Source: a virus
Direction: 5' to 3' (one strand)
DNA: 55,171 nucleotides
Virus record (IMG/VR): IMGVR_UViG_3300012971_000890
The position numbers and the translations under genes are program-made. Positions 5,970 to 50,591 of the stretch are shown piece after piece. The first letter of the stretch is position 1. Every line of letters starts with the position of its first letter. The notes under the pieces were generated by a model. The model was not told the origin of the DNA and ran no database searches. It saw only the letters and a program-made list of their open reading frames with translations.

Positions 5970-5999
5970 ATTTTACTGACGGGTGGGACCGATTGTAAA
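5970..5999 (-). promoter_or_regulatory. phage promoter, TTTACA(AT)-N18-TAAAAT
   Basis: Minus-strand GAGTTTACAATCGG...TAAAAT about 30 nt upstream of the 5336..5941 gene. Confidence 0.6.
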
Positions 6000-6000
6000 C

Positions 6001-6414
6001 TCAGATCGTCTTCTTGTCAACGATCAGGGCGACCTGGGTGCGTTTACTCCAGCAGAAGCTCTGATAGAGGTACACCCGCTCGCGTTCCGGCTCGCGGCAA
6101 GCGGCGATGTCCCCCAGGTAGCTGCTGGGGTCGATGCGGATGTGGCGGATCGGCCCGCAGGGATACATCAGCAGGACCAGCCGCCACTTGCCGGTCTTGC
6201 TTTTGCTGTACCCCAGCACAGTCCCCTTCTTGTAGCGGTTATTGACGACCACGCCGATAACGTTTCCCGGCTGGAACAGGTCAAGGACGACCTCGATTTG
6301 GCACAACTCGCTGCGCCGCTCGCACTTGCCGGTGAGCAGGGTGTCGTCAATCTCCCCCTGGAGAACCCGCTTCGCTTCCTTCTGCGACATGAAGTCTGCC
6401 ACCTTCGTCTGCAT
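6001..6414 (-). CDS. hypothetical protein (start MQTKVADF...)
   Basis: ATG at 6414 preceded by GGAAGGAGGAGAGG; the track's longer N-terminal extension runs through an AT-rich intergenic region. Confidence 0.45.
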   Translation of the reverse strand: MQTKVADFMSQKEAKRVLQGEIDDTLLTGKCERRSELCQIEVVLDLFQPGNVIGVVVNNRYKKGTVLGYSKSKTGKWRLVLLMYPCGPIRHIRIDPSSYLGDIAACREPERERVYLYQSFCWSKRTQVALIVDKKTI

Positions 6415-6494
6415 ATCGCCTCTCCTCCTTCCGTTGCCCCTATCCATAAAGGGCGTCAAACCACGCCGCCGGTGCAGGAATTCTCGAATTTCTC

Positions 6495-6526
6495 CTAAAA
6501 AGAAGACGGGCGGCGTTCCACCCGTT
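6495..6526 (-). terminator. rho-independent terminator (minus strand)
   Basis: Hairpin ACGGGUGG-AACG-CCGCCCGU followed by CUUCUUUUU. Confidence 0.5.
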
Positions 6527-6683
6527 ACAGTTAATAGCCCTTGCCCCCGGAATTTTTCCCACCAACAGGAAACGCCTGAGAGGGCATTCCGGTGACAGAC
6601 AATATTCGTTTTTGGAGGAGATTTTTCCCGCCCAATAGTATACGGTCGCTGAGGATCGTTGTTTCTCCCTGGGGCGCAAGAAT

Positions 6684-6968
6684 TTAGCGCGGAGGCCCCT
6701 TGCCCTTGTCCTCGTCGTCCCGCTCCCAGGGCGGCGGCTCGCCCCGTAACCACCAGTGTTCCTTGTCGTCTACTTTGCTATCTGGGGGCTTGGGCACCGC
6801 GACCTTTACGAAGAAAACCATCAGGCCGAAGCAGACGCCGAACCCCAGGCCGAAGGCCAGGACAAGTCGGCTGGTGGATGCCTCCACCCCGGTAGCTGCT
6901 AGAAGTGAGCCGAGAAGCAATCCCAGCATAAAGCTGATCCATGCCTTAAATAAGACGTGCATTTCCAT
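6684..6968 (-). CDS. small two-TM membrane protein, holin-like topology
   Basis: Two hydrophobic helices then a charged C-terminal tail (DDKEHWWLRGEPPPWERDDEDKGKG); start at internal ATG (MEMHV). Confidence 0.4.
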   Translation of the reverse strand: MEMHVLFKAWISFMLGLLLGSLLAATGVEASTSRLVLAFGLGFGVCFGLMVFFVKVAVPKPPDSKVDDKEHWWLRGEPPPWERDDEDKGKGPPR

Positions 6969-6990
6969 GCACCTATATAGTGGCCGCAGC

Positions 6991-7032
6991 AAAAGACGAA
7001 AAAACCCCGGCAAGTTGTACACCTTGCCGGGG
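6991..7032 (-). terminator. rho-independent terminator (minus strand)
   Basis: 10-bp stem CCCCGGCAAG/CUUGCCGGGG followed by UUUUUUCGUCUUUU. Confidence 0.6.
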
Positions 7033-7191
7033 CACGGACATCAACTTTTGTCGGCGGTCCACGAACGAGGTTCATCGCCACGTTCGGTCTACAGACCTCC
7101 CAATAGCGTTCCTCCCCACAAGCAGGAGGCCGGCGCTATAGCTCCGCTCGAACGCTTCACCCCGCTTTCTAGGGTTGATGTCCTTTCCTAC

Positions 7192-8764: not shown

Positions 8765-9298
8765 TCACCCCAGAATCTCGCACTCAATGTTGTTAACGTC
8801 CTGCAACCTTGCCCAGAAACGCCGATTAGGCATCTTGGCGTCCTTGCCGCCATAGCAGACCAAAGGACATTTCTCGACCTTGAAGGTGATCGAGTCAAAG
8901 GCTTCGGCACCTTGGCGGATGTAGTAACGGTCGATGGCCAGCACCGTGGTCGCCGGCAGGTTAACCTCGATATATGGCAATGGTACTTGCGTCAGGAAGG
9001 ATTTGTAAACCTCATCTTTCGGTTCTTTCGATTTTTCCGCCTTGTAGACGGTGAAACCTGCCGATTTGAAACTGGCAAGCAGTGTCTTCCACTCCTCGCG
9101 GCCCCGCTTGGACCAACCCGGCTCCTCGCCCTTGCCATACCACTTTTCCAGATGGCGGACCCAGGGGATGGTGACCTTCTTGCTGCCGTCCAGCACGGCG
9201 GCGAGGACGGTGGCGTTGCGGCTCTCGAAATATAGCCGGAAGTACCATTCTTCCTGTAAAGCGATCAACGCCCCCAGGGGCGGGATGCAGAGTCGCAT
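8765..9298 (-). CDS. hypothetical protein
   Basis: 177-aa ORF. Confidence 0.45.
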   Translation of the reverse strand: MRLCIPPLGALIALQEEWYFRLYFESRNATVLAAVLDGSKKVTIPWVRHLEKWYGKGEEPGWSKRGREEWKTLLASFKSAGFTVYKAEKSKEPKDEVYKSFLTQVPLPYIEVNLPATTVLAIDRYYIRQGAEAFDSITFKVEKCPLVCYGGKDAKMPNRRFWARLQDVNNIECEILG

Positions 9299-12585: not shown

Positions 12586-13512
12586 TCAGACATCACTGTT
12601 GCCGATGATGTCGCCGGCAATCCCCTTCAGCCGCTCGACCTTCTCGGCGGGCGTGTCATTCAGACCCAGCTTCGCCTTGCCGACGAAGTGGACCGGCGAG
12701 AACACGCGGAAGATGGCCTTGACGTGATCCAGGGCCTTGGCGTAGACCGGGACGCGACCAATGACGCCCTTCTTGACCGTGACCTGCGGGGTCGTCACCA
12801 GCACCAGCTTGCGCTCCTCCGGCGTCAACTCGTTCTGGACGAACCCCATGATCTTCTTGGCCACGGCCTTTTCCTCGTCGGTGGCCTCCTTGAAGTCCTT
12901 GCCTTCCTGGTGGCCGAACAGCAACTCGTTGAAGGCCCGCAGGCTCTTCACCGGGCGCATCTCGACCTCGTTGGCCAGGAACGCCTCGGCCTGCTCCTTG
13001 GGGACGCCCATCTCGGTCAGCAGGCGCACGGTCGCCGCCTGAATGGTTTCGCCCTCGGCGGGTTCGGGCATGTGGATGTTATTCTTGGTGAAGCGGTCCT
13101 GCACCTGGAACAACGCCTCCATGTCGCGCTTGCCGGGCTGGCCGTCCTTGTCGAGCTTGAGGGCGGGGTTAGTCGGCTGGGACTTGTACTTCCAAAGCGA
13201 CTCCTGCCAGAGATCGAACACGGCGCGGTCAACCTCGGCCTCGCTGTTCTCGGCACGCTTCAGGACGATCTCAGCCAGCACCTTGGAGCCGACGAAGCGC
13301 TTGAACGCCTCGACCACGGCGGGCGGCAGTGGAACTTCGGGCCGCTCGGCCTTCTTCCCTTTCTCCTTGACGGTGGCCGAACCGTCGTCGCCCAGGGCGT
13401 CGAACAGATCGTCACCGGCGGGAGCGCCACGGACGGCGGCGGGGATGGAGTGGGCGGGCTGGGAGCCGGTGGCGGGCTGGGAACCGGCGGGGGTGGAACG
13501 GGAACGAGCCAT
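12586..13512 (-). CDS. hypothetical protein, 308 aa
   Basis: Downstream of a TTTACA promoter copy (RBS GAGGAGGA) and followed by a terminator. Confidence 0.5.
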   Translation of the reverse strand: MARSRSTPAGSQPATGSQPAHSIPAAVRGAPAGDDLFDALGDDGSATVKEKGKKAERPEVPLPPAVVEAFKRFVGSKVLAEIVLKRAENSEAEVDRAVFDLWQESLWKYKSQPTNPALKLDKDGQPGKRDMEALFQVQDRFTKNNIHMPEPAEGETIQAATVRLLTEMGVPKEQAEAFLANEVEMRPVKSLRAFNELLFGHQEGKDFKEATDEEKAVAKKIMGFVQNELTPEERKLVLVTTPQVTVKKGVIGRVPVYAKALDHVKAIFRVFSPVHFVGKAKLGLNDTPAEKVERLKGIAGDIIGNSDV

Positions 13513-13600: not shown

Positions 13601-13629
13601 ATTTTACTGTGGCAATCGCGGGTTGTAAA
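13601..13629 (-). promoter_or_regulatory. phage promoter, CTTTACAAC-N17-TAAAAT
   Basis: Upstream of the 12586..13512 gene. Confidence 0.65.
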
Positions 13630-16294: not shown

Positions 16295-17383
16295 TTAGCC
16301 GTCGTCGTCCGACAAATCAGCGAACAGCCGGTTGGGGTACTTCAGCTTGTATCCCTCCAGCAGACGAGTTTTGATGCCCTCCTCGACACTGCGCTTGTCA
16401 AACGCCGTCATGAGCGACCCAAAAATCTGCGGGTACTCATTCTTGGCGAACCAGGCATAATCCTTGCGCAGTTTATCTGGCGGCGGGTCACCCACCCCCG
16501 CCACTAGCATTATAGACGCTGCGGTTTCGCGGACACGCTTGGTTTCGTGCAAAAGGTCAAGCTGGGCTTCGGTGTAAATCTCGCGCAGCTTTTCCTTGTG
16601 GCGGTCGGGGGCCTTGGCGATTAAGTCATCCATTAGGTCATCGAAAACGACCTCGTAGAGACGATAGGCCGGGCGCATCAAAGCGTCCACCGCACGGTGG
16701 CGCTCCAAATACCAGTTGCACTTCGCCTTCACCCAGAGGCCATTCTCAAGAACCACAACGTAGCCCTCAAACTCCTCCTTGTCAAGATGGCCAAACAGAT
16801 CGGCAAACGCGAAGTCGTACTGCTGCGCGGCGTCAGGATAGCGGGGGTAATAACTGTACTCGCCCGTGGCCCGGCACCGGGAATGCAGGTACACCAGGCG
16901 GGGGCGGGGATATTCCACCACGATCTGATTGTGAGGGGCGACAAATTCAAAAATCGGCGTGCAGCCCCTTCGCACATCCGCCACAATGTCGTCCACCATC
17001 CCCAGGCTGCGGGCCAACCGCATCGCCTGCTGCGCCTGCGGCGTCTCGCAAGACATTCGCGTGGACGCCCGCAGATCGCCCTTCCATTCAAAGAAGTGGA
17101 CCATCGAGCCGTCGAGCTTTTCGTAGACCCTGCCGTTCAGATGGCAGAGCTTGTGGTACTGCGTGTCTTCCGTCTGACCCACGTTGAAGAACTTGTGGAG
17201 AGGCAGGGAAACGATTTCCCCGGTGGCCTCGGCAAAAGTGATGCCACGGAATTCGCGGCGGATGCCGTCGAACGACCCTGGGAACTGGAGCAGGTAGTTG
17301 ATGCAAACCAAGCCATCGTACCGTTTTACGAGGAATTCCTCACGGCCTTCCAGGGCAACCAGGGCTTCGGGCAGCTTGAGCAT
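16295..17383 (-). CDS. RNA ligase, T4 Rnl1-like family
   Basis: 362 aa (T4 Rnl1 is 374 aa); motif I EKLDGS, motif IV EGYVVV, motif V LWVKAK; a TTTACA promoter copy lies immediately upstream. Confidence 0.65.
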   Translation of the reverse strand: MLKLPEALVALEGREEFLVKRYDGLVCINYLLQFPGSFDGIRREFRGITFAEATGEIVSLPLHKFFNVGQTEDTQYHKLCHLNGRVYEKLDGSMVHFFEWKGDLRASTRMSCETPQAQQAMRLARSLGMVDDIVADVRRGCTPIFEFVAPHNQIVVEYPRPRLVYLHSRCRATGEYSYYPRYPDAAQQYDFAFADLFGHLDKEEFEGYVVVLENGLWVKAKCNWYLERHRAVDALMRPAYRLYEVVFDDLMDDLIAKAPDRHKEKLREIYTEAQLDLLHETKRVRETAASIMLVAGVGDPPPDKLRKDYAWFAKNEYPQIFGSLMTAFDKRSVEEGIKTRLLEGYKLKYPNRLFADLSDDDG

Positions 17384-17388
17384 ATCAC

Positions 17389-17417
17389 ATTTTACTTCGG
17401 ATTGTGCGGGTTGTAAA
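17389..17417 (-). promoter_or_regulatory. phage promoter, GTTTACAAC-N17-TAAAAT, preceded by an A-rich UP-like tract
   Basis: 5 nt upstream of the Rnl1-like gene start. Confidence 0.65.
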
Positions 17418-18580: not shown

Positions 18581-20299
18581 TTACGCCGCCGCGATGTCGG
18601 GACGCAGCTTCTCGATGTTCAGGCCACAACGGCTGAGGCCCTTGCGTTCGATGAAGTCGTCAATATCGAAACTGGCGTTCATGCTGACGTGGCTCAAGTA
18701 GGTCTGATGAACCGCAGCCCGGAAATCATCGACGCGGACGAAGGTGCCCTTGCCGGTCTTGGAGGCCATGTCGCGCTTGAGGGCGCAGGACGTGGCCAGG
18801 TCCACGATGCCGGCGATCATGGCCCCGGAGATGCAGTCCCCCAGGGTCATGTAGTGTTCCCGACCGTCGCCATTCGAGAACTTGTAGAGGACACGCTCCT
18901 GGGAGAAAATCTCGGCGGTAGTATGCGCGGCGATCTCGGCCAAATCGGCGGGGCCGGTCGGGATGTTGCGCAGGTGAATGCGGAAGTATTCAATGGCCGT
19001 GCGGGTGGTCGGACGCCCGATGCGAACGTGGCGGTCAATGCGGCCCTCGCGCACCACGGCGGGGTCCAGGCTGTTGGGCTGGTTGGTGGCCAGCACCACC
19101 ATCACCTTGCTCGTCTCCAGGCCGTCCATTTCGGACAGGAACATGGGGACGATGGTTTTTTCCACGTCGGAGGACTTGCCGGTGCCACGCTGCGGCATGA
19201 TGGCGTCGGCCTCGTCAATGAAAAGCAGCGCCGGGTAGCCGTGCTTTTCGTGGTGTTCACGGCCACGGTCGAACAGTTCACGGATTTGCCGCTCGCTCTC
19301 GCCCACCCACTTGCTGAGCAGTTCCGGTCCCTTGACGTAAATGAAACCGGACTGCATCTGTGGCTTTTCGTGGATTTTGGCGATACTGAAGGCAGCCGCC
19401 TTGGCGCACAGGGTCTTGCCGCAGCCCGGAGGGCCGAAAAGGAGGACGCCCTTGGGTGGCCGCTTGTTGTAGTGGCGGTACAGTTCTGGGAACTGGTACG
19501 GCAATTCGATGGCCTCGACCAGTTGCTCCTTGGCATCGCGGACCCCGGCGATGTCGTCCCAGGTGACCTGGGAATCTTCCAGCAGGTTGAAGCGGTCGTT
19601 GCCCTCGCGCTCCAGCAGCCGGACGATCACGGTGTCGGAAGGGTCCAGAACCACACGGTCGCCGGGCTTGAAGGTCACGTTGGTCAAACCGGCCAAAACC
19701 TGGCGGGGCCGACCGTCCACGTCCACTTCGGCGTGGTCCTTGTCGATCAGGCGGGTGATGCCACAGATCGTACCCCCGCCGGTCGTCTCGGCCTTGTCGT
19801 GAATCTGGTACGATTGCAAATCGACCTTCACAACCTCGGACGGGTGAAACTTCTTGCCGGGGACGCCGTGGACCTCGTACTGTTGGCCGTTGAACACGAT
19901 GACGCAGTTGGTGCCATCATCCTTGCCGAGCAGCTTGACCTGGACGGGGGCATCTTTCAGACCGATGGAGAACTTGTGGCAAGCCCCGTTGGGCAGGGCC
20001 AGCGTCACGTTGTCTTCCTTGTCCACGCCCTTGGAGGCGATCTTGCCGTAGCGCGGGCGCTTATCGTTCTTGCGCCATTCGCGGTCGATAATGAGCATCA
20101 GGTCGCCCTGCTCGAAGGCTTCCAGGTTGAACTCATTACGAGCCTTCACCACCGTGGCGTAGACCAGGGGAGCCGCGAGGAGACGAGCCACGAAGCACTC
20201 GTATTCCAGAATGGTCCCCTTGGCTTCCTCCAACAGCGCCATCATCTGTTCTTCGTTCATTGGAATCCTCGCATCCATTCTAGTTCTCCCCATAGTCAA
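18581..20299 (-). CDS. AAA+ ATPase, ARC/Mpa (proteasome-associated ATPase)-like: N-terminal coiled coil, OB-like middle region, single AAA domain
   Basis: Walker A GPPGCGKT, Walker B LLFIDEADA, second region of homology; the 572-aa length and domain order fit ARC/Mpa. Confidence 0.75.
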   Translation of the reverse strand: MTMGRTRMDARIPMNEEQMMALLEEAKGTILEYECFVARLLAAPLVYATVVKARNEFNLEAFEQGDLMLIIDREWRKNDKRPRYGKIASKGVDKEDNVTLALPNGACHKFSIGLKDAPVQVKLLGKDDGTNCVIVFNGQQYEVHGVPGKKFHPSEVVKVDLQSYQIHDKAETTGGGTICGITRLIDKDHAEVDVDGRPRQVLAGLTNVTFKPGDRVVLDPSDTVIVRLLEREGNDRFNLLEDSQVTWDDIAGVRDAKEQLVEAIELPYQFPELYRHYNKRPPKGVLLFGPPGCGKTLCAKAAAFSIAKIHEKPQMQSGFIYVKGPELLSKWVGESERQIRELFDRGREHHEKHGYPALLFIDEADAIMPQRGTGKSSDVEKTIVPMFLSEMDGLETSKVMVVLATNQPNSLDPAVVREGRIDRHVRIGRPTTRTAIEYFRIHLRNIPTGPADLAEIAAHTTAEIFSQERVLYKFSNGDGREHYMTLGDCISGAMIAGIVDLATSCALKRDMASKTGKGTFVRVDDFRAAVHQTYLSHVSMNASFDIDDFIERKGLSRCGLNIEKLRPDIAAA

Positions 20300-21057
20300 C
20301 GGGCCTTGACTAAGATTTCCTTGCCCGTGTCCTCAAAATCATAGCCGCCACTCGACGGGACGGCAATGGTCTTGAGCGGGGCCTTGGTAACGCGCACGTT
20401 GTTGTTAACGTCCACCGTGTAGCTGGCGAGCGGCTTGCCGGCGGTCTTCCCGGTGGGCGTGGGCTTCTGCACAACCAGAGTGGTGCCGTCCTTGGTCCAC
20501 ACGGCCACCTTGTCCTTCGGCTTGAAGCCGCAGGCGCGGAGGTACTTGGCGGGGATGCACACCGTCCCACGGGCGTCGGGCTTACGGCCCTTCTTGGCCG
20601 TCCCGGCGGCTAACTTCGGCAAACTGGAAGGTGGGGCGAGGCTCGCCGTACCGCCACCGCCAGAGCCGTTGTCACTGGACCCGTCGTCGGCATTGGGGTC
20701 AGCTTGGCCCTGGGCGTAAAAGCCACTGACCGCCGCCGCCACGTCCGCCGGATTCGAGTTGGCCGCAGGGCGAGGCTTGGAGTGCGGGTTGAACGTCGTC
20801 GGGTCATCGGTGTGGCGATGGTAGAGGAACGCCGGCATGGGCGCTCCCGCGATGGGGATGAGCGTCCGGGTGTAGTCCGGCCCCATCAACCCGCGACCGT
20901 AGTAGTCGTGGACCACCTGCTTGATGTTGTCGTGGCGTTCGCGGTGGCCCCGGTTCCTGACCTCCTTGGTCACGTCGTAGGCGGTGAACATCTCACCGTC
21001 TTGAACCTTGTCATTGACCACCGACTCGATCACGCTCTGAAGGGCTGCATCAACCAT
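20296..21057 (-). CDS. protein with C-terminal AbrB/SpoVT-type swapped-hairpin DNA-binding domain
   Basis: C-terminus TVCIPAKYLRACGFKPKDKVAVWTKDGTTLVVQK; Gly/Ser/Ala-rich linker; TTTACA promoter copy upstream. Confidence 0.5.
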   Translation of the reverse strand: MVDAALQSVIESVVNDKVQDGEMFTAYDVTKEVRNRGHRERHDNIKQVVHDYYGRGLMGPDYTRTLIPIAGAPMPAFLYHRHTDDPTTFNPHSKPRPAANSNPADVAAAVSGFYAQGQADPNADDGSSDNGSGGGGTASLAPPSSLPKLAAGTAKKGRKPDARGTVCIPAKYLRACGFKPKDKVAVWTKDGTTLVVQKPTPTGKTAGKPLASYTVDVNNNVRVTKAPLKTIAVPSSGGYDFEDTGKEILVKAR

Positions 21058-21080: not shown

Positions 21081-21109
21081 ACTTTACTGCGAGTCTTCGC
21101 CGTTGTAAA
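21081..21109 (-). promoter_or_regulatory. phage promoter, CTTTACAAC-N17-TAAAGT
   Basis: Upstream of the AbrB-domain gene. Confidence 0.6.
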
Positions 21110-21120: not shown

Positions 21121-21486
21121 TTAGTCGTCGTCATCAATGCTGCGGTGTCTTGGGACGCCTTGTGGGTATTTAGCCTTGAGCCGGCGCTCCAATATAACCC
21201 ACTCGATAGCTTCTTGCACATCGGGCCAATATATGGCGGGCTGATCCCATTCCCCCTCCGTGGTTTCGTCCAGGGACTTGAGGATGCGCGATTCAAAAAA
21301 CTCGCCGCCGTCCACATCTCGCTGGACCAAACGGCACATGGTCCAGAACAGGATGTCATTGGCTTCGTCAAGGGACCGGGCCGGGATGTCATACGGCCCG
21401 GTCCACTTGTAGTTTTTCTGCATCGTCTCCAGGTCGTAGACGACGTAGCAAAACTTCATCGGGAAGGTTTCAAGCTTGCGTCTCAT
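21121..21486 (-). CDS. hypothetical protein, translationally coupled to the PARP-like gene
   Basis: ATGA overlap at 21483-21486 with the PARP-like stop. Confidence 0.45.
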   Translation of the reverse strand: MRRKLETFPMKFCYVVYDLETMQKNYKWTGPYDIPARSLDEANDILFWTMCRLVQRDVDGGEFFESRILKSLDETTEGEWDQPAIYWPDVQEAIEWVILERRLKAKYPQGVPRHRSIDDDD

Positions 21487-23105
21487 GCCGCAAATTCCAC
21501 GAGGTAGCGAAGCTCGAACTGGTTGCGCTGGAACACGATCCACTCGTTGTTCTGGACCTGCGAGTGGCCTCCCTTTCCGAAGACGCAGTGGCAGCCAGCC
21601 GGCGGGGCGGTATAACCACGCGGACCTGGCGCGACGTGCGGACGGCCCAGCACCACGTCACCCGCGAACATGAAAGCTTCACGGCCCCGCACGGCACCGC
21701 CGCCGGACGACCAGTAGCTCCCCCGCAGGCTGGTGTAGCCGGCACTTTTCTTCCAGTCGTCGGCCCAATAAATGCCGGGGCCGAACATAGCGCCGGTGAT
21801 GACCACGCCGACCAACTGACTCGGCATACGCAGGTTCTCCCGCAGGATGCCGGTGACGTTGACCGAGCGGGTGCCGTGGAACAGCAGGCCGGTGTTGCTG
21901 TCACGGTAGCGGCGGATGTCGTCGCTATTTTGCAAATCCGCACGCTCCGGCGGCTGGAACAGGGGCCGCTCGTCAATGCGATGCTTGCCCTGGACGATGC
22001 CGGCCTGCGCCCCCACCACCAACTTGTGGTCGCCGTGGCGCTCGACCCGCCAGGCGTTCTTGATTTTCATGGCTCCCAGGTAGCCGTGCTTGTTGGCCGT
22101 AGCGCGGGGCCACCAGCCGTAAAGCCACTTGCCCACATCGCTCTTGGGGTCGATCCACTCCATCTCGATGGGCATACCACCGAACGGGTCGTGCTGATGC
22201 TTCACGTCGTCCACGTCCGCAGCGACCGCCAGAGCCGCCTCAAAGGCGTCCAGGTCCGCCTGCCAGCCCAGGATGTTGCTGGTGTTGAGAATCCAGTCCT
22301 GGGGCGGGCAGTGCAGCGGCTTCTTCTTGGGGATGCGACCGTACATGAGCGCGGTCAAGTGCTTCAGGTCGTCATCGGCCACCTGGGCGTCCACGCTGTC
22401 GCCCACCACCAGCAGGCGCTTCTGGGCTTCGGCCAGGAAGTCGCGGGCCTCCTCGATGGCCGCTTGGGTGGGGATGGAGGCATCGGCCATGCTGCCACGG
22501 GCGTACTGCACCGTCGCCACGTTCAGGTCGCGCATGAGCGAGAGCGTATTCTGGTCCGCCGCACGGGCCGGGGCCTTGATGACCTTCTTCTTGGCACCTT
22601 TTTTGTCGTCCGCCGGGGTGTCGTCGGGCTTGTCCTTCGGTTTCGCCCCGTCGTTGGCCTTGATGGTGCGGGCGTCCGGCAGGCCAGTGCTGCGGGTCGC
22701 CATCGCCCGGACGAGGTAGCAGTCCTTGCCGGCGCGGGCACGCAGCACCCGCTTGCTGGCCACCTGGACCCACTCGCCCCGCTTGTCGTTCTTGTCGTGG
22801 AGTTGCGAAGCGAATTCACGCTGGGCGTCCGCCTCGCCGGAGCAGACCACGAACTGGAAGTTGGGGTTTTTCGCCCCGGTGCGGCCCCACTCGAAGTAAA
22901 CGGCCCACTGGCCGCTCGTCTTATGCTTGACGACCGCCGCGTGGTAGTATTTGTTTGAGTCCTTGCCGTCCTGGGTGAAACACCCCATGTCGGCAATCTT
23001 GCAACTGTCGAAGTCCCCATCCGCGATGGCGGGTGGTCCGAAGCACTGCCAATCGTTGGGGCTGGACCCGTTCGGGTAACTGTTCTTCTCGATCTTCGAT
23101 CCCAT
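21483..23105 (-). CDS. poly(ADP-ribose) polymerase-like ADP-ribosyltransferase with N-terminal WGR domain
   Basis: WGR motif (WAVYFEWGRTG); catalytic H-Y-E triad context LLFHGTRS, GPGIYWADD, QNNEWIVFQ; RBS GGAGAG; TTTACA promoter copy upstream. Confidence 0.75.
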   Translation of the reverse strand: MGSKIEKNSYPNGSSPNDWQCFGPPAIADGDFDSCKIADMGCFTQDGKDSNKYYHAAVVKHKTSGQWAVYFEWGRTGAKNPNFQFVVCSGEADAQREFASQLHDKNDKRGEWVQVASKRVLRARAGKDCYLVRAMATRSTGLPDARTIKANDGAKPKDKPDDTPADDKKGAKKKVIKAPARAADQNTLSLMRDLNVATVQYARGSMADASIPTQAAIEEARDFLAEAQKRLLVVGDSVDAQVADDDLKHLTALMYGRIPKKKPLHCPPQDWILNTSNILGWQADLDAFEAALAVAADVDDVKHQHDPFGGMPIEMEWIDPKSDVGKWLYGWWPRATANKHGYLGAMKIKNAWRVERHGDHKLVVGAQAGIVQGKHRIDERPLFQPPERADLQNSDDIRRYRDSNTGLLFHGTRSVNVTGILRENLRMPSQLVGVVITGAMFGPGIYWADDWKKSAGYTSLRGSYWSSGGGAVRGREAFMFAGDVVLGRPHVAPGPRGYTAPPAGCHCVFGKGGHSQVQNNEWIVFQRNQFELRYLVEFAA

Positions 23106-38147: not shown

Positions 38148-39440
38148 TTAGGCGGCTTTTACGGGGTACAACTTGGCCTCACCCCGGACCACTTCCGGCG
38201 TGACGACGTACTTGCCTCCCTGGTGTTCCGGCAGTTCGTACATGATGTCGAGCATGATCTCCTCGACCACGCCCCGCAACGCACGGGCACCCGTGTCGCG
38301 CTCGATGGCCCGCTTGGCGACTTCCTTGATGGCATCCGGCGTAAATTCCAGGGTCGCGCCGTCCATCTTGAAAATCTTCATGTACTGCTTGAGTAGGGCG
38401 TCCTTCGGCTCGGTCAGAATCTTGCAGAGGAATTCCTCGTTCAACTCGCTGAGGGTGGTTACGACCGGCAGCCGGCCCACGAACTCCGGGATCATCCCGA
38501 ACTCAATCAGATCGTCGCTGGTCACCTTGCCCATGATGGCGTCGTTCTGCTCTTGCTCAGTGCCCTCGTCACGCGATACGCCGAAGCCGATGCTGCGTCG
38601 GCCCGTCCGGCGAGCGATGATCTCCTTCAGGCCGGTGAAGGTTCCCCCGCAGATGAACAGGATGTTCGTCGTGTCCACCTGGATGTATTGCTGCTCCGGG
38701 TGCTTGCGCCCGCCCTGGGGCGGGACGTTGGCGAGCGTGCCCTCAAGCATCTTCAGGAGAGCCTGTTGCACGCCTTCGCCGGAAACGTCGCGGGTGATGG
38801 AAATATTCTGCGTGGTCTTCCCGATCTTGTCGATCTCGTCAATGTAAATGATGCCGCACTGCGCGGCCTCGATGTTAAAGTCCGCCGAGCGGAGAAGACG
38901 CAGGATCAGGTTTTCCACGTCCTCTCCGACGTAACCGGCCTCGGTTAGCGTGGTGGCGTCCCCAATGGCAAAGGGGACATCCAGTTTCTTGGCCAGGGTG
39001 CGGGCCAGAAGGGTCTTGCCCGACCCGGTGGGACCGACCAGCAGAATGTTGCTCTTGTCGATCACCACGTCCGCCAACGGGTCTTCCTCCTCCTTGTTCT
39101 GGTTGGTGGTGTCCTTCAGACGCTTGTAATGGTTGGCGACGGCGACGGCCAGAATCTTCTTCGCCCGTTCCTGGCCCACAACGTACTGGTCCATGTGGGC
39201 GACCAGTTCCTTGGGCGAAGGGATGTGCTGGGGCAGGTGCTTGTCGATGAGTTCGCGTTTCAGGTTTTGCTTCTTGATGATCTCCTGGCAAATCTCCACG
39301 CAGGTGGGGCAAATGAAGACCTTATCCTCGTCCGGCTTTCTGCCGTTGGCGAGGGCACCTGGCCCCTCAATCAACGGTCCCACAACCTTGTGAGACTGCT
39401 TGCAGAAGTCACAGTGCTGCTCACGCTTTTTCCTCGTCAT
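38148..39440 (-). CDS. clpX: ATP-dependent Clp protease ATP-binding subunit ClpX
   Basis: N-terminal C4 zinc-binding domain; [47 protein letters not shown] is near-identical to the ClpX consensus. Confidence 0.9.
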
Positions 39441-39479: not shown

Positions 39480-39508
39480 AGTATACTTACCGAGGAGCCG
39501 ACTGTAAA
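39480..39508 (-). promoter_or_regulatory. phage promoter, CTTTACAGT-N17-TATACT
   Basis: Upstream of clpX. Confidence 0.6.
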
Positions 39509-42922: not shown

Positions 42923-43369
42923 TCAACTGGTCAGGCCCCGCAGGAATTCGGCCAGGACGATGAGGTTGTCGTAGCCGCCGACCTCGGCGGCGACTTCCTT
43001 GACGCGCTTCGCTTTCAAAGTAAAACCATGCAGGTCCACCTTGGCCTGGTCCACCGGCCTGTTGGCGGGGTCCGGCTGAAGAAGCGCGGCTGCTTGATCG
43101 GGAGTGACGACGGACGTGGCAGGAGGGGCAACGGGCGGGGCTGGGACCGGGGTGTTGTGAGGCTGCGGCGGGCGTGAGTTACCTCGCCGGCGCTCGGCAG
43201 CCTCCTCCTCCCGGATTTTCTTCCGCTCCGCATAGACGAGCGACGAGTGGCAGGTCTGGCGGTAACGCCGCTCCATCTCGTCAATCACCTTCTGGGCATC
43301 TGTGTCCGCACCCAGGTCGGCCAAGATCGTTCGGACCATCTGGGTACGGGTCTGCGTCTGCACTGCCAT
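42923..43369 (-). CDS. hypothetical protein
   Basis: 148 aa, downstream of a TTTACA promoter copy. Confidence 0.45.
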   Translation of the reverse strand: MAVQTQTRTQMVRTILADLGADTDAQKVIDEMERRYRQTCHSSLVYAERKKIREEEAAERRRGNSRPPQPHNTPVPAPPVAPPATSVVTPDQAAALLQPDPANRPVDQAKVDLHGFTLKAKRVKEVAAEVGGYDNLIVLAEFLRGLTS

Positions 43370-43413: not shown

Positions 43414-43443
43414 ATAGTACGGCACCCGGTTGTGGGTTGTAAA
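43414..43443 (-). promoter_or_regulatory. phage promoter, CTTTACAAC-N18-TACTAT
   Basis: Upstream of the 42923..43369 gene. Confidence 0.6.
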
Positions 43444-43444: not shown

Positions 43445-43479
43445 CCAAAAAAATTGCCCGGCCTGTTAGAACCGGGCAA
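43445..43479 (-). terminator. rho-independent terminator (minus strand)
   Basis: Stem UUGCCCGG/CCGGGCAA followed by UUUUUUU; lies between a promoter and the upstream gene stop. Confidence 0.6.
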
Positions 43480-43504
43480 TTTATCCGCCAGGCCAGAAGA
43501 AGGT

Positions 43505-44011
43505 TTAGGCGGCTTCTCCCTTGAAGTAGCGCATGGAGTCGTTGTCGCGGACCAGCACCTTCTTCTTCATCATGCGCCCCACCGCCTGCTGGACCATATT
43601 GTGGAAGTTCTTGCTGGTGGACTTGTAACCCGCCTTGAGGGCCTGGGTCACCATCTCGTCCAGGGCCAGGCCGTTCCTCGACTTCTCAACCAGTTCGAGG
43701 AGCAGTTCCTCCAGGGGCGGCTGCTTCCCCTCCACGCCCAACTCGGCCTTGGACGGACGCCCTCGGCCCCGCTTCTGCCCATTCGCCGCCGGCTTCCGGG
43801 CCTGCCGGGTCGCACGGGGGCCACTTTGCTTGGGCGGCTGCCGGCCCACGGTCACGGTCGGGGTGGGCTTGATGGCAGCGCCATCCTCACTTTTGAAGGA
43901 CCACCCAAGCTCCGCGAGCTTGGCGTCGATTTCCTTCAGTTCCTCCCTCAGTTCTTCTTCCTTCGCGGCCCTCTGCTGAAGTAGCTCGATGGCCTGCTTC
44001 GTGTCGGACAT
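43505..44011 (-). CDS. DNA-binding protein with AT-hook (KRGRGRPSK) and N-terminal coiled coil
   Basis: RGRP AT-hook motif; basic middle region. Confidence 0.45.
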   Translation of the reverse strand: MSDTKQAIELLQQRAAKEEELREELKEIDAKLAELGWSFKSEDGAAIKPTPTVTVGRQPPKQSGPRATRQARKPAANGQKRGRGRPSKAELGVEGKQPPLEELLLELVEKSRNGLALDEMVTQALKAGYKSTSKNFHNMVQQAVGRMMKKKVLVRDNDSMRYFKGEAA

Positions 44012-44097: not shown

Positions 44098-44125
44098 ACT
44101 ATACGGGCCATATTATGGCTGTAAA
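44098..44125 (-). promoter_or_regulatory. phage promoter, CTTTACAGC-N16-TATAGT
   Basis: Upstream of the 43505..44011 gene, divergent from csrA. Confidence 0.55.
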
Positions 44126-44207: not shown

Positions 44208-44396
44208 ATGCTCGTGCTATCCAGAAAGAAGGACGAAACCATCATCCTGAAAGGCCCCGACATGCACGAAATCCGAATCACGGTGGTGCGGATCGACAAT
44301 CGCAATAAGGTCCGCCTGGGTATCGAAGCCAATAAGGATGTCACGGTCCTTCGTTCGGAACTTACCAACGGCACCGGCCACGAGGGCGAAGCCTAA
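44208..44396 (+). CDS. csrA: carbon storage regulator CsrA homolog
   Basis: MLVLSRKKDETIIL...VRLGIEANKDVTVLRSEL matches the CsrA fold sequence; RBS AAAGGAAAC. Confidence 0.75.
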   Translation: MLVLSRKKDETIILKGPDMHEIRITVVRIDNRNKVRLGIEANKDVTVLRSELTNGTGHEGEA

Positions 44397-44848
44397 CTGT
44401 ACTCCGGTACATGGAGGGCTTTATTTATCACGCCCACTACGCGGCGATATTCCTGGCTGTTGATGTCCCAAAAATAACGTGCGAAATAGCAGACCGCCTC
44501 CGGGGCGTAGTCCTGCCCCTTATCCCAGCCCGCCGCACGAACCTGCTCGGCCCAGCTTGCGATGTCCTCGTCAGTAACCTGCACCCCAGCATCCCAGGGA
44601 TGCCCCTTGGGCTTGCAAGGTGGCTTTCCTGCGGGGATGACCACCCGCGACCGCCCACTGGTGACCACACTCGGCTGGGGTTCGGGGGCCGGCGGCTCGG
44701 CGGGGGCACCGCCAATAACTCCAGCCGCCGTGGCCGGCGTATCGGCCAGCTTCACCGGCGGCGAGAACTGGTGGCCGCACTCGCATCGCTGCGTCCGCAA
44801 ACCCACCGACTTGTGGCACTTCGGGCATTCCTTCAAACCACGGGGCAT
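44393..44848 (-). CDS. zinc-ribbon hypothetical protein
   Basis: CPKCH ... CECGH near the N-terminus; downstream of a TTTACA promoter copy. Confidence 0.45.
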   Translation of the reverse strand: MPRGLKECPKCHKSVGLRTQRCECGHQFSPPVKLADTPATAAGVIGGAPAEPPAPEPQPSVVTSGRSRVVIPAGKPPCKPKGHPWDAGVQVTDEDIASWAEQVRAAGWDKGQDYAPEAVCYFARYFWDINSQEYRRVVGVINKALHVPEYS

Positions 44849-44870: not shown

Positions 44871-44899
44871 ATTCTATCGCCCACTTTTCCGGTTGTAAA
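44871..44899 (-). promoter_or_regulatory. phage promoter, CTTTACAAC-N17-TAGAAT
   Basis: Upstream of the 44393..44848 gene. Confidence 0.65.
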
Positions 44900-47965: not shown

Positions 47966-48002
47966 TACTGTATGTATGCACATCCGCCAGGAAATTTGGG
48001 GT

Positions 48003-48032
48003 TGACAACCCGAACTCATCCGGTAGACTTCT
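48003..48032 (+). promoter_or_regulatory. sigma-70-like promoter TTGACA-N17-TAGACT followed by the 8-bp palindrome GCAACGTG-cgat-CACGTTGC (48041-48060)
   Basis: Upstream of the plus-strand secreted-protein gene. Confidence 0.45.
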
Positions 48033-48088: not shown

Positions 48089-48490
48089 GTGATGATGCGG
48101 AAGTCGATCTTCGTGGGAATGGTGGCCCTGATCGCTCTGGTGGCGATGGCCGACACGGCGATGGCTCGCGGACGGCGCGGGGGCTGCGGCGGCGGGGGTG
48201 GCTGTGGCGGTTGCTACTACGGCGGCTATGTCACCTACGGCGGCGGCTGTGGCAGTTACGGCGGCAACGGCTACGGCGGCTACTACAACGGCAACGGCTA
48301 CGCGGCGGGCAGCTACGGCACGCCCGTCACCTACGGTGCCCCCGTGTACAGCACGCCGGGGCCGGTGATCGTGGACCAGCCCCAGGAGGGCACCCAGAGC
48401 AGTGGCGCGATTCAAGTCCGTGACCAGCAGGGTCGTATCTTCTATCTGGTCCCGGAGGGCCAGTACAAGAAGATGCAGCAGCCGAAGTAA
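48089..48490 (+). CDS. secreted Gly/Tyr/Cys-rich protein
   Basis: Signal peptide MMMRKSIFVGMVALIALVAMADTAMA; GGCGGGGGCGGCYYGGY low-complexity region; RBS AGGAGG; a sigma-70-like promoter upstream and a terminator downstream. Confidence 0.55.
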   Translation: MMMRKSIFVGMVALIALVAMADTAMARGRRGGCGGGGGCGGCYYGGYVTYGGGCGSYGGNGYGGYYNGNGYAAGSYGTPVTYGAPVYSTPGPVIVDQPQEGTQSSGAIQVRDQQGRIFYLVPEGQYKKMQQPK

Positions 48491-48496
48491 CGGCGC

Positions 48497-48545
48497 AAGA
48501 AAAGGCCCCGGCGGTTCGCTCACCGCCGGGGCCTTCCTTCTTTTT
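48497..48545. terminator. bidirectional rho-independent terminator
   Basis: 11-bp GC stem GGCCCCGGCGG/CCGCCGGGGCC flanked by T-runs on both strands; serves the plus-strand secreted-protein gene and the minus-strand ParB-like gene. Confidence 0.65.
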
Positions 48546-49789
48546 CACTTCTCCTCGACGGCCTGGAGCTTCTTGCCCCACTTGCGGAAAATCTTCATCG
48601 GCTCGGTTTCGCCGTCGTGGATGCCCTTGGCCACCGCCATCCCGAACTTCAGCACTTCCACCGGGGCGAGGAACTGGCCTTCCGGGTCGTTGCCGTCGTT
48701 CTTGATGGCCGTCTCCAGCGTCTCCATGTAGTGCTTCTTGATCTTGGGGCCGCGAAGCGACTGCGTGGACTGGCCCCCGGCATCCCGCAGGCCGGCGCGG
48801 GCGTGCTTGGCCTTGACAACGGGCTTGACTTCGCCCTTCTGCTGGGTCTTCTCCTCCACCCGCTTCTGGGCGGCATCGTGTTCTTGGCCCGCCTCCTTCT
48901 TGCCCTGGTCGTCATCGGAGAATTCGGCCTCGGCCTGCTTCGCCTTGGCGACCTCCACATCCTCCTTGGCCTTGATGATGGACTTTTCGAGCTTCTGAAC
49001 CTTCTTCTTGGCGTCCTCACCCGCGTACTCGGTGGCCTTTTCCAGCCCCTCGTGGCGGATGCCCAGGTCTTCGACCTCCGCGAAGGCCAACGCCGCCGCC
49101 TTGTTGATGTCCCCCTTGAAGAAGGCGGTCAGGGTGTCCTGATCGTCGGACAGCTTCTCGATCAGACGGTCCATGTCCCGCAACCACTCCGGGCGGTTGC
49201 CGGTGACTTCGAGGATTTCGTCGTCGCTCCAGCCCTTGGAGCGCAGTTCGCGCACCAAGTTGATGTCAGCCTCGTCACCGAAGTCCACGCGGCAGGTGCC
49301 CGACTTGTACGCCAGCTTGAGGGCGTCCTTGTCGGTCGGGGCGTCGTAGACCTGGCACAAGATCGACCCGTACAGTTCCTTGGCCGGGACGTACTTGCCG
49401 GTAGCAGGGTCTTTGCACTTCTCGTTCTTGCGCACCAGGAAGTCGATGTTGCGCAGGCGGCGCTCGCCGTCCACCAGTTGGACCGTGCGCATTTCGTCCT
49501 GGCTGATCCACCGGCAGATGAGCGGATAGTGCAACCCCTCGTCGCGGATGGACTCACGCAGGCGGGTCATGCTGGGTTTGTCGAAGCCGCGCCCCGCCTC
49601 CCCCTCCTCGGTCGTGAGGTAGCGGAGGTTGCTCCACTTGTACTCACCCCCTTCCGGGGCGTCCGGGTCGGGCTTGTCGGCCACCGTGATGGCCGCAAAC
49701 TTGACCTTGAACAACGTGCCCTCGATCCCTACGATTCCATCAGCCAACGGCTCGCCGTTGTCCGGGGCGCTGCTTTCCTTGTCCGCCAT
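48545..49789 (-). CDS. ParB/Srx-domain protein with long charged coiled-coil C-terminus
   Basis: GLHYPLICRW...VQLVDGERRLRNIDFL ParB N-terminal-domain motif. Confidence 0.6.
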   Translation of the reverse strand: MADKESSAPDNGEPLADGIVGIEGTLFKVKFAAITVADKPDPDAPEGGEYKWSNLRYLTTEEGEAGRGFDKPSMTRLRESIRDEGLHYPLICRWISQDEMRTVQLVDGERRLRNIDFLVRKNEKCKDPATGKYVPAKELYGSILCQVYDAPTDKDALKLAYKSGTCRVDFGDEADINLVRELRSKGWSDDEILEVTGNRPEWLRDMDRLIEKLSDDQDTLTAFFKGDINKAAALAFAEVEDLGIRHEGLEKATEYAGEDAKKKVQKLEKSIIKAKEDVEVAKAKQAEAEFSDDDQGKKEAGQEHDAAQKRVEEKTQQKGEVKPVVKAKHARAGLRDAGGQSTQSLRGPKIKKHYMETLETAIKNDGNDPEGQFLAPVEVLKFGMAVAKGIHDGETEPMKIFRKWGKKLQAVEEK

Positions 49790-49825
49790 AAAATTCGCTC
49801 CTTTTCTCTTGGTGGGGTGGAACCC

Positions 49826-49854
49826 AGGCAGGCCGACTGTACTGAAAAATTCCG
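49826..49854 (-). promoter_or_regulatory. canonical sigma-70-like promoter TTGACA-N18-TACAGT (coordinates approximate)
   Basis: Minus strand CTTGACAAATCCCGGAATTTTTCAGTACAGT about 35 nt upstream of the ParB-like gene. Confidence 0.45.
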
Positions 49855-49889
49855 GGATTTGTCAAGTTCGGTCGTAAGTCCCGTCAGAA

Positions 49890-50540
49890 CTAGAAGTTGT
49901 AGTTCTTGTGGGCCTTGCGGCAGCGAATCTGCCAGTCGGTTTCGTACTCCACCTTCCCGAAACTGTCCAGTACCGAGTCCTTACGACGAAGGACCAGGCC
50001 CTCGATCAAATCGACGCTCTCCGCTTCCTTGAAGCGGTCTACAAAATGTTCGGTGAAAGTTTCGGCCAGCCAGAGGTTGGGGCTGATCTTGAGCGCAAGG
50101 CCCGCCATCTGGTCGGTCGCGGGATCGCCGGTGCCCGTGGGGTTGCCGCAAATGTCGAACAGGATTTCCAGGCGCTTCATCTGGTCGGGCGAGCAGAAGA
50201 AATAGCGGCCCGCCTCCAGAATGTCGAAAAACACCAGACAGTTGGGGCCGTCCTTGGTCTTGTTCATCACGCCGCCGTCGATCCAGTAGGTCTTGTTGGG
50301 GTCCAGCTTGAGGTTGGCCTTGATCTCCTCGGCCAAAGCGCTGGTAAGCGAGAAGCGGACGTGCTTGCCCCCGTGGCGGTTCCACACGCTCAACTCCCGG
50401 CCCAGGTCCACGCGGAGCAAGGTGCGGCTGTCGTTGAACTTGCGCTGGGCGATCCACAGCCCCGTCTCCTCGTAGTACGACAGGTCGGACGGGCTGATCT
50501 TGCCGCGTGGCCGAGGCGGGTAGATGGGCTTCTTTATCAT
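49890..50540 (-). CDS. hypothetical protein with degenerate covalent-nucleotidyltransferase (ligase-like) motifs
   Basis: KFNDSR (motif I-like, lacks Gly), FFDIL, EGLVLRRKDS, WQIRCRK. Confidence 0.4.
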   Translation of the reverse strand: MIKKPIYPPRPRGKISPSDLSYYEETGLWIAQRKFNDSRTLLRVDLGRELSVWNRHGGKHVRFSLTSALAEEIKANLKLDPNKTYWIDGGVMNKTKDGPNCLVFFDILEAGRYFFCSPDQMKRLEILFDICGNPTGTGDPATDQMAGLALKISPNLWLAETFTEHFVDRFKEAESVDLIEGLVLRRKDSVLDSFGKVEYETDWQIRCRKAHKNYNF

Positions 50541-50561
50541 TGCGTCGTTCCTCCTGCAATG

Positions 50562-50591
50562 ATATTACCGCCCGGAGCGGGCAGTTGTAAA
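50562..50591 (-). promoter_or_regulatory. phage promoter, CTTTACAAC-N18-TAATAT
   Basis: Upstream of the 49890..50540 gene. Confidence 0.6.

Follow-up and report, generated by a model that had tools for sequence, protein, structure and literature searches.

A homogeneous class of predicted sigma-70-type promoters in a gene block of a soil huge phage

The early promoters of bacteriophage T4 carry GTTTAC at positions -36 to -31 and are read by the sigma-70 of the host (PMC1524935, PMC2988021). Early promoters of T4-like phages are A-rich between -40 and -44 and have a GT-rich stretch 5' of -12; G is preferred at -33 in RB49, RB43 and Aeh1, and RB43 has G or C at -36 (PMC1524935). A different arrangement is the MotA box, TGCTTtA, which is centred at -30, lies 11-13 nt from the -10 element and replaces the -35 element (PMC1524935). 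In RB49 and phi1, the repeated PeSL elements are sigma-70-like early promoters with AT-rich upstream sequence and often a G+C-rich stem-loop between -35 and -10, and they are located intergenically before small open reading frames (ORFs) (PMC2839356). In this report, we analyze a 55,171-nt stretch of viral DNA, IMG/VR record IMGVR_UViG_3300012971_000890 (hereafter the window), in which 12 minus-strand copies of an element composed of the -35 hexamer TTTACA, a spacer of 16-18 nt and a TAnnnT -10 hexamer lie ahead of genes, one of which encodes a sigma-70-family protein.

Phage-encoded sigma factors are known from cascades such as those of SPO1 (gp28 and gp33/34), T4 (gp55) and phiEco32 (gp36), in which the promoters are sharply unlike the host consensus. 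Within bacteria, the hexamer TTTACA is familiar from the lac promoter of Escherichia coli, whose -35 region (GCTTTACAC) is followed by an 18-nt spacer, and which is weak and activator-dependent. The 'group 2' jumbo phages have no RNA polymerase and encode RpoD-like sigmas (PMC7824862), and one huge phage is reported to encode a sigma-70 while directing CRISPR against that of its host (PMC7162821). These papers describe the RpoD-like sigma genes and define no cognate promoter for them (PMC7824862, PMC7162821), and the literature that we searched yielded no description of the promoter class presented here. Almost all that is known of huge phages comes from metagenomes, and the programme by which they express their genes is, to our knowledge, unmapped. 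A promoter class conserved in a phage family delimits transcription units and candidate early regions in such genomes, provides a concrete DNA target for probing the role of the phage RpoD-like sigma, and offers ready-made strong promoter parts. The class itself is an ordinary, though cleanly defined, feature.

Twelve TTTACA elements in intergenic regions

The window is about 59% G+C (GC), and nearly all of its genes are on the minus strand. Gene calls for this phage were taken from a database and placed on the window, of which 92.5% proved to be coding; the intergenic sequence amounted to 4,143 nt. All 12 sites that the original prediction had placed on the minus strand are present (Table 1), and all 12 lie in called gaps and are co-oriented with the next gene, as had been claimed. 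The minus strand contains 19 copies of TTTACA, and the plus strand contains two. The prediction had proposed that intergenic sequence be compared with coding sequence; within the window, 13 of the 19 minus-strand copies are intergenic, versus 0.57 expected from composition (binomial p = 4e-11). The combination TTTACA-N17-21-TANNAT was found at 10 distinct minus-strand sites, whereas shuffled sequences gave an expectation of 0.04. Reading the sequence added three sites with the -10 hexamers TATAGT, TATACT and TAAAGT, for a total of 13, of which 12 form the predicted set. The remaining, weaker copy is inside an ORF and is either a chance occurrence or an internal promoter.

Three checks did not presuppose the motif: a repeat search, a ranking of hexamers and a census of intergenic k-mers. 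The de novo repeat search recovered the element as families D3 and D11, each of about 30 nt, and similarity among copies was limited to this block, from -35 to -10. When all 4,096 hexamers were ranked by their occurrence 16-18 nt 5' of any TAnnnT, TTTACA was first (n = 13, 12 of them with an intergenic -10) and TTGACA was second (n = 4). Apart from Shine-Dalgarno words, the enriched intergenic k-mers were all derived from TTTACA, and each of the nine occurrences of TTTACAAC is intergenic. A generic sigma-70 scan also found the 12 sites, among a total of 42 promoter-like sites versus 15.4 expected.

The -35 hexamer is identical in all 12 copies, as predicted, and matches TTGACA at five of six positions. 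Spacers of 16 nt (n = 1), 17 nt (n = 8) and 18 nt (n = 3) bear out the predicted range. The -10 hexamers match TATAAT at four to six of six positions. The form TAnnAT proposed for them applies to nine sites and not to TATACT, TATAGT or TAAAGT; TAnnnT, with A at position 2 and T at position 6, fits all 12. Similarly, the C or G said to precede TTTACA is present at 11 sites, and the site at 23175 has A instead. At this position, -36, C is found in 9 of 12 copies (p = 1.5e-3), G in two and A in one. Downstream of the hexamer, A at -29 (p = 6e-6) and C at -28 (p = 2e-4) each occur in 10 copies. G at -13 is also present in 10 of the 12 (p = 2e-4), an element of the motif that was missing from the earlier description, whereas TG at -15/-14 occurs at none of the sites in the window. 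The consensus is therefore (C)TTTACA-A-C-(C)-(G/C), a spacer of 17±1 nt, G at -13 and TAnnnT. The 10 nt 5' of the -35 hexamer have an A+T fraction of 0.56, versus 0.41 for the window, and about half of the sites have clear A or T tracts.

Because the hexamers resemble the sigma-70 consensus to this degree, are spaced by 16-18 nt, lie between genes in the orientation of those genes, and are kept in relatives amid divergent spacers and leaders (see below), the evidence supports a classification of the 12 elements as putative sigma-70-type promoters.

Table 1. Predicted promoters in the window, and the sigma factor gene. For promoters 1 to 12, the higher coordinate is the first T of TTTACA on the minus strand. 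Distances to genes are counted from the end of the -10 hexamer.
Feature	Position	Strand	-35, spacer (nt) and -10	Downstream gene	Remarks
Promoter 1	50562..50591	-	cgcTTTACAac-18-(G)TAATAT	21 nt to ATG of 216-aa gene 49890..50540	
Promoter 2	44871..44899	-	ggcTTTACAaccgg-17-TAGAAT	22 nt to ATG of 151-aa gene 44393..44848	Repeat family D11; GCTTTACAACCGGAAAA common to promoters 2 and 7
Promoter 3	44098..44125	-	tgcTTTACAgc-16-(G)TATAGT	Gene 43505..44011, 86-nt leader	In divergent gap adjoining plus-strand CsrA homologue; equivalent TTTACA promoter in relative L068
Promoter 4	43414..43443	-	ggcTTTACAaccc-18-(G)TACTAT	44 nt to gene 42923..43369	Intrinsic-terminator hairpin 43482..43451 and T run directly before; equivalent GGCTTTACAACCC promoter in relatives L068 and L076
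Promoter 5	39480..39508	-	cacTTTACAgt-17-(G)TATACT	39 nt to ATG of ClpX gene 38148..39440	Starts 4 nt past stop of M50 peptidase gene
Promoter 6	30583..30611	-	cacTTTACAactgg-17-TATAAT	35 nt to ATG of sigma gene	11/12 to sigma-70 consensus; no G at -13
Promoter 7	25517..25545	-	tgcTTTACAaccgg-17-(G)TAGAAT	Called phosphatase-like gene 24731..25243 starts 273 nt on	ATG 6 nt past -10 opens 31-codon ORF; possible leaderless start
Promoter 8	23147..23175	-	taaTTTACAaccgg-17-(G)TAATAT	41 nt to ATG of WGR/PARP-like gene 21483..23105	
Promoter 9	21081..21109	-	tgcTTTACAacgg-17-(G)TAAAGT	23 nt to ATG of 253-aa gene 20296..21057	A-tract aaaaag upstream
Promoter 10	17389..17417	-	aagTTTACAaccc-17-(G)TAAAAT	T4 Rnl1-type RNA ligase gene 16295..17383	A-tract aaaaaa upstream; repeat family D3
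Promoter 11	13601..13629	-	ggcTTTACAaccc-17-(G)TAAAAT	Gene 12586..13512, 88-nt leader	Repeat families D3 and D11
Promoter 12	5970..5999	-	gagTTTACAatcgg-18-(G)TAAAAT	28 nt to GTG of gene 5336..5941	Overlaps upstream TTGACA-17-TACAAT promoter 6020..5992 (tandem arrangement)
Weaker 13th copy	8980..9009	-	ggTTTACAaa-18-TACCAT		Inside ORF 8765..9298; outside the originally predicted 12
TTG-type	49836..49865	-	TTGACA-18-TACAGT	ParB-like gene 48545..49789	
TTG-type	48002..48029	+	TTGACA-16-TAGACT	Glycine-rich gene 48092..48490	
TTG-type	54210..54238	-	TTGACT-17-TAGACT		Preceded by terminator hairpin 54272..54249
TTG-type	52577..52606	-	TTGCCA-18-TAAAAT	NYN-domain gene 51837..52547	
TTG-type	near 51790		TTGCTT-17-TATTAT		
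Sigma-70-family gene	29576..30547	-			323 aa; Pfam Sigma70_r2 and r4; regions 1.2-2.4 and 4

The elements had been described as directly upstream of gene starts, which holds for 11 sites (5-88 nt from the -10 hexamer to the start codon) and not for promoter 7, where the called gene is much farther away. At seven sites this distance is 21-44 nt, to a start codon with a Shine-Dalgarno sequence; at two sites it is 86-88 nt. Promoter 4 directly follows a terminator and so presumably opens a new transcription unit. The ATG of the RNA ligase gene is 5 nt after the -10 hexamer of promoter 10, and a leaderless mRNA is therefore predicted. In all, starts of this kind, with ATG 5-6 nt after the -10, are predicted at three places: 17383 (RNA ligase), 25510 (the 31-codon ORF) and 51740 (after TTGCTT-17-TATTAT). 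The corresponding regions, 17381-17394, 25508-25522 and about 51738-51760, all on the minus strand, are odd beside genes with strong Shine-Dalgarno sites. Downstream of promoter 7, a 308-nt gap without a called gene (25244-25551, minus strand) has no Rfam match and folds slightly better than shuffled sequences (z = -1.87, 6/200); a long leader, a small RNA or a small ORF that gene calling missed might each account for it.

Spacers of the 12 promoters have more self-complementarity than shuffled sequences (mean z = -1.33, p = 0.017). This tendency varies by site: four spacers have z below -3 or about -2, and four show none. The best-folding spacers are those at 50591 (an 8-bp stem, -13.2 kcal/mol), 23175 and 44125. 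For the three long leaders, predicted folds are only modestly better than those of shuffles (z = -1.2 to -1.9).

Both TTGACA promoters that the original prediction had named in the same window, ahead of the ParB-like gene and of the plus-strand gene, do exist. Together with the TTGACA at 6020 and the other TTG-type sites in Table 1, they form a smaller and heterogeneous set, and this supports a view of the TTTACA promoters as a homogeneous class distinct from it.

Conservation in related phages and likeness to known promoters

Searches of the phage collection revealed no DNA nearly identical to the window, and its relatives there are recognizable only at the protein level; soil metagenome contigs of up to 151 kb carry proteins identical to those of the window. 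At the protein level, the block is fully syntenic with 181-202 kb of LR756511, a complete 595-kb uncultured phage. Genes common to the two encode a ParB-like protein, FolD, PRPP synthetase (Prs), an M50 peptidase, ClpX (61% identity), the sigma factor (31%), the PARP-like protein (62%) and an ADP-ribosylglycohydrolase (ARH). Several contigs of 180-590 kb are syntenic as well. Based on this synteny, we interpret the window as a conserved non-structural block of a soil huge phage. Other relatives are denoted below by locus numbers (L004 and so on).

In orthologous positions ahead of the ClpX, sigma and PARP genes (in L004, L006, L007 and LR756511), the -35/-10 pair is retained, and spacers and leaders differ. 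Upstream of ClpX, TTTACA-17-TATACT of the window corresponds to TTTACA-18-TATAAT in L004 and TTGACA-16-GTAAAGT in LR756511. Upstream of PARP, TTTACA-17-TAATAT corresponds to TTTACA-17-GATATT in L006 and L007. The sigma gene, which in the window does follow the copy with a perfect TATAAT (TTTACA-17-TATAAT), as had been noted, has TTTACA-18-TATACT in L004, TTGACA-17-TATATT in L041 and TTGCGT-18-TATAAT in L006, L007 and L073, and some relatives have TTTACT promoters there with an unchanged reading helix in the protein. Regions upstream of the sigma genes were too diverged for a useful MAFFT alignment, and these promoters were picked by eye.

A blind scan of IMG/VR with GCTTTACAACC-N14-16-GTANAAT gave 19 single matches, mostly chance occurrences in AT-rich contigs. 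Two of them are syntenic relatives, L060 and L068, the latter on a 340-kb contig. Their CsrA homologues are 85-87% and their AAA_33 proteins 67-70% identical to those of the window, and FolD, Prs and the ParB-like protein are also common to them. Both contigs carry GGCTTTACAACC...GGTATAAT promoters at equivalent places and an orthologue of the sigma gene. Among seven sigma-bearing IMG/VR loci with 38-48% GC, the gene strand has 28 copies of TTTACA-N16-18-TAnnnT and the opposite strand has one; the corresponding counts for TTGACA were four and two. Promoters of the TTTACA class occur in L004, L075, L076, L084, L090, L093, L095 and L097, which are sigma-bearing, as are all the relatives compared. 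Many sites in relatives have TGG or GTGG before the -10 hexamer, that is, an extended -10.

In LR756511, the sigma-70-like type is TT(G/T)ACA-A-N14-G-TAA(A/G)(G/A)T, with fixed spacing at 18 sites. These sites are confined to the minus strand between 170 and 300 kb, the region syntenic with the window, where TTGACA occurs 18 times and TTTACA six times. The spacers of these 18 promoters show no excess pairing. A second motif, (T)AAAGCTGTAC, is present at 67 intergenic sites, mostly between 0 and 100 kb, and probably marks another promoter class that is not sigma-70-like. The regional separation of the two makes a temporal class switch, as the original prediction had suggested, plausible. Since relatives keep the element while its surroundings diverge, and since it is confined to the syntenic region in LR756511, the TTTACA type appears to be a family trait tied to this gene block, in a family with more than one promoter class.

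The second motif of LR756511 can also be written (T)(T)A(A)AGCTGTAC(t/a)aa. Inspected copies are about 15-55 nt before a start codon, often directly after a terminator hairpin, and the motif precedes rIIA, rIIB, an Rnl1-like ligase gene, a clamp-loader-like gene and a second sigma gene (152574-153575). The LR756511 motif AGCTGTA is absent from the window, and the T4 late motif TATAAATA is not enriched in LR756511. A further repeat, ATTTYCSGAGAC, found in L006 and L007, is also absent from the window. In L006 (about 14590-17760), the repeat GCGCAAT(T/C)TCGGAGAC directly follows stop codons, with about 45-55 nt between it and the next start codon, and its counterpart in L007, GATTTTCCGAGAC, is at 14602-14613, 15294-15305 and 17064-17075.

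Among described promoters, those of the window look most like T4-type early promoters, and the class would be a new example of that kind in a poorly known huge-phage lineage. Shared features are TTTAC(A) with T at -33 (all 12 sites), variation between T and G at -33 among related phages (mostly G in LR756511), and a TAnnnT -10 with conserved A at -11 and T at -7. The A-rich sequence upstream is matched in part (by the modest A+T excess noted above, with clear tracts at about half of the sites), as are the G- or T-rich bases 5' of -12, by G at -13 and, in relatives, by frequent TGG or GTGG. In both cases many copies head short units, in one orientation, of auxiliary or novel ORFs, and the phage carries ADP-ribosylation enzymes. 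The two differ at -36, which is mostly C here and G in T4, and in that the window has only G at -13 and no TGn at -15/-14. We know of no AC at -29/-28 in the T4 early consensus. Moreover, the genome described here is 59% GC, its ADP-ribosyltransferase is PARP-like rather than Alt/Mod-like, and, unlike T4, it encodes an RpoD-like sigma. In T4, T at -33 is linked to RNA polymerase that has been ADP-ribosylated by Alt. A correlation of T at -33 with the PARP-like gene was considered and rejected, because in LR756511, whose PARP is 62% identical, -33 is mostly G.

The lac promoter resembles the class in having the -35 hexamer TTTACA with GC before it, and it illustrates that housekeeping sigma-70 reads TTTACA; unlike the class, it is a single host promoter and not a repeated phage element. 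PeSL elements, like the window sites, have spacers with a propensity to fold. However, the shared sequence in the window extends over about 30 nt and not the approximately 100 bp of PeSL, and its stem-loops are short, with a third of the sites having none. The genes downstream are mostly family-conserved and not the ORFans with which PeSL elements are associated, and there is no sign of cassette mobility. The resemblance to PeSL cassettes is only partial.

The phage sigma factor and the reading of the class

In the sigma-70-family protein of the window, Pfam searches detected no region 3, and its score is below every curated cut-off for RpoD and RpoS. The region 4.2 helix, LTKERVRQL (VTRERIRQI in sigma-70), retains the canonical form that reads the -35 element. 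Region 2.4 is STYGTWVLLNNFTRDL, and regions 2.3-2.4 read FKFSTYGTWVLLNNFTRD versus YKFSTYATWWIRQAITRA in sigma-70. Differences include the equivalents of W434V, R436L and Q437N in region 2.4, as well as R584K; these reading residues are invariant across all phage orthologues, and nothing in the helix predicts T over G at -33. A scan of IMG/VR with the single protein gave no match, and a family alignment was needed to find the orthologues. The nearest cellular relatives (loci L009-L032) are alternative sigmas of about 560 aa from Gemmatales, Gemmataceae, Singulisphaera and other Planctomycetota (36-40% identity, E about 1e-48). They have the same TKERVRQ helix and a long N-terminal extension rich in helix-turn-helix motifs, and give a weak hint of a possible host or gene donor. 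No TTTACA promoter was found upstream of the Gemmatales homologues, and the counts in about 95 kb of Gemmatales DNA (29 TTTACA versus 26 TTGACA) are uninformative on host preference. The family, which also has T4-like genes (Rnl1, rIIA/rIIB), fits the 'group 2' jumbo phages, with which it has in common a nearly complete RpoD-like sigma, T4-like genes and, in the window, no evident phage RNA polymerase.

Whether the sites fire, where transcription starts and which sigma reads them are matters that we infer from sequence. With moderate confidence, we propose that the housekeeping holoenzyme of the host reads the class, which would then be the early class of this phage and the counterpart of T4 early promoters. 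Under this hypothesis, 12 strong sigma-70-type promoters would head the transcription units of a co-directional non-structural block. Region 4 of a sigma-70-family protein would bind TTTACA, and region 2 would bind TAnnnT across the 17±1 bp spacer, with affinity added by G at -13, C at -36, AC at -29/-28 and the A/T-rich upstream tract. Transcription would start 6-8 nt past the -10 hexamer, so that most genes would have short leaders with Shine-Dalgarno sequences and two or three would give leaderless mRNAs, and the early genes expressed by the host holoenzyme would include that of the phage sigma.

On balance, we favor the host sigma over the phage sigma or shared use for several reasons. The class matches the universal housekeeping consensus TTGACA-17-TATAAT at 9-11 of 12 positions, although the consensus of the actual host may differ. 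T and G at -33 interchange among relatives, as they do in T4-like phages, whose early promoters are recognized by the sigma-70 of the host. In relatives, an extended -10 is common, an element that primary sigmas contact by means of region 3.0, and this region is undetected in the phage sigma. The sigma gene itself follows a class member, its promoters vary among relatives even though the reading helix is invariant, and the gene content of the block is of the takeover or auxiliary type. Other observations weigh against a host reader. The invariant T at -33, the AC extension and G at -13 make the class more uniform than the TTG-type promoters, whose -35 hexamers are TTGACA, TTGACT, TTGCCA and TTGCTT. 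Relatives spanning 35-60% GC, which probably have different hosts, retain the TTTACA/G(-13) type, and this persistence would be easier to explain with a phage-encoded reader, as the residues contacting DNA are invariant in the family. The lack of the classical TGn element in the window and the modest A/T-rich tract also count against it.

It is possible, if rather doubtful, that the phage sigma reads the class instead, replacing or outcompeting the primary sigma of the host and preferring CTTTACAAC ... G-TAnnnT. The position of its own gene behind a class member would then reflect positive autoregulation, with the first copies coming from read-through or from weak host recognition of the copy with a perfect TATAAT; this copy is one of two without G at -13, as might be expected of one that starts the process. 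The original prediction took the extension beyond TTTACA to suggest recognition beyond the standard -35, possibly by the phage sigma. Conservation past the hexamer is real, with A at -29 and C at -28; attribution to the phage sigma is on balance the less likely reading, given its canonical helix and the T4 precedent. Consistent with a phage reader are the homogeneity of the -35 and its flanks relative to TTG-type promoters, the retention of residues for a TTGACA-like -35 (TKERVRQ) and a TAnnnT -10 (F/Y/W of region 2.3), and the changes in region 2.4 (W434V, R436L and Q437N) and R584K, which are compatible with a shifted but related specificity. The invariant residues and the TTTACA/G(-13) type are, in addition, conserved across the same family over the whole range of GC content, and a huge phage with its own sigma-70 is reported to target that of its host by CRISPR (PMC7162821). 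Yet the motif is nearly the universal housekeeping consensus, and characterized phage sigmas usually read clearly different motifs. In this respect the sigma cascades of other phages differ from the present case, which they resemble in that a phage protein of the sigma-70 family redirects host core RNA polymerase and has its gene behind a host-type promoter. Also difficult to reconcile with a phage reader are the preference for T over G at -33, which the helix does not predict, the TTGACA, TTGCGT or TTTACT promoters of relatives' sigma genes despite an identical helix, the TGG of their extended -10 elements in the face of an undetectable region 3, and the independence from any phage sigma of T4 promoters with this shape (PMC1524935).

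The fullest form of the phage-sigma proposal, for which our expectation is equally low, holds that an RpoD-like huge-phage sigma, conserved in the family, has CTTTACAAC...G-TAnnnT as its cognate promoter; the nearest cellular kin of this sigma are the alternative sigmas of Gemmatales. The phage would thereby carry its own 'housekeeping' sigma and matching promoters, with the sigma gene autoregulated and a conserved block of 50-130 kb made independent of the host sigma pool across hosts of very different GC content. Shared use of the same promoters by both sigmas seems improbable. In that case the phage sigma would serve as a back-up independent of the host, for instance if the host sigma is scarce or inactivated, and not as the key to a separate class. 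The residues that contact -35 and -10 are nearly the same in the phage sigma as in primary sigmas, which would permit such use, as would the presence in the window of a single dominant class that includes the sigma gene, without a second enriched intergenic word. However, shared use leaves the coexisting TTG-type promoters unexplained, and in LR756511 some other reader is required for at least one additional promoter class, which is not sigma-70-like.

We give very little credence to the idea that the main role of the CTTTACAACCGG block is to bind a phage transcription factor that overlaps the -35 (an activator like MotA, or a repressor), or that the copies are recombination cassettes like PeSL. 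Conservation does run 5-6 nt past the hexamer, GCTTTA resembles the MotA-box core TGCTTtA, and the spacers fold better than shuffles, as in PeSL with its stem-loop between -35 and -10 (PMC2839356). However, a MotA box can be rejected on geometry, because GCTTTA ends 19 nt from the -10 rather than 11-13 nt and the usual -35 position is already taken. Spacer dyads vary in sequence among the sites, which excludes a common operator, and spacers in LR756511 lack excess pairing. Similarity ends at about 30 nt, and every site has a full -35/-10 pair. ParB/parS sites and iterons were likewise rejected as classifications, since the element is non-palindromic, strictly oriented with genes and always paired with a -10.

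If the host sigma does read the class, the T4 early design (T at -33 and G-rich sequence 5' of -10) would extend to a distant, GC-rich lineage of huge phages. Should the phage sigma be the reader, the class would be half of a rare matched pair of sigma and promoter that mimics the housekeeping system.

Other features of the gene block

Pfam matches in the window comprise the sigma-70-family protein, a hybrid protein with PAS, histidine-kinase and receiver domains, ClpX, an M50 peptidase, a WGR/PARP-like ADP-ribosyltransferase, an ADP-ribosylglycohydrolase, a T4 Rnl1-type RNA ligase, Prs, FolD, a ParB-like protein and AAA ATPases. Rfam and tRNA scans found no Rfam family and no tRNA in the window.

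An ADP-ribosylation toolkit is kept across the family. It includes the WGR/PARP-like transferase (21483-23105) and the ADP-ribosylglycohydrolase (14019-15017, minus strand), and L005-L007 add a NUDIX protein; with LR756511, the identity of the PARP-like protein is twice that of the sigma factor. The hybrid sensor (31040-33283, minus strand; 747 aa) is encoded about 500 nt upstream of the sigma gene and has three PAS domains, HisKA, HATPase and a receiver. A sensor of the PAS/HisKA type is unusual in a phage, and the one in L004 is shorter and has no PAS domains.

The CsrA homologue divergent from promoter 3 (44208-44396, plus strand; 62 aa, PF02599 in the database gene call) is highly conserved in the distant relatives L060 and L068, as given above, and its neighbors are far less conserved. 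The plus-strand gene 48092-48490 contains tandem GGC/TAC-rich repeats (48186-48282, repeat family D4) that result in a Gly/Tyr-rich product, and it has a bidirectional terminator (48502-48535) in common with the ParB-like gene. Finally, a terminator-like hairpin, CTGGCCAGGTG-N5-CACCTGGCCAG, is present in two intergenic copies, 10478-10506 and 12013-12041. The word CTGGCCAGGT of these hairpins also occurs in the spacer of the sigma promoter (half-site 30595-30606), and the window contains 17 copies of it with at most one mismatch, versus 4.8 expected.

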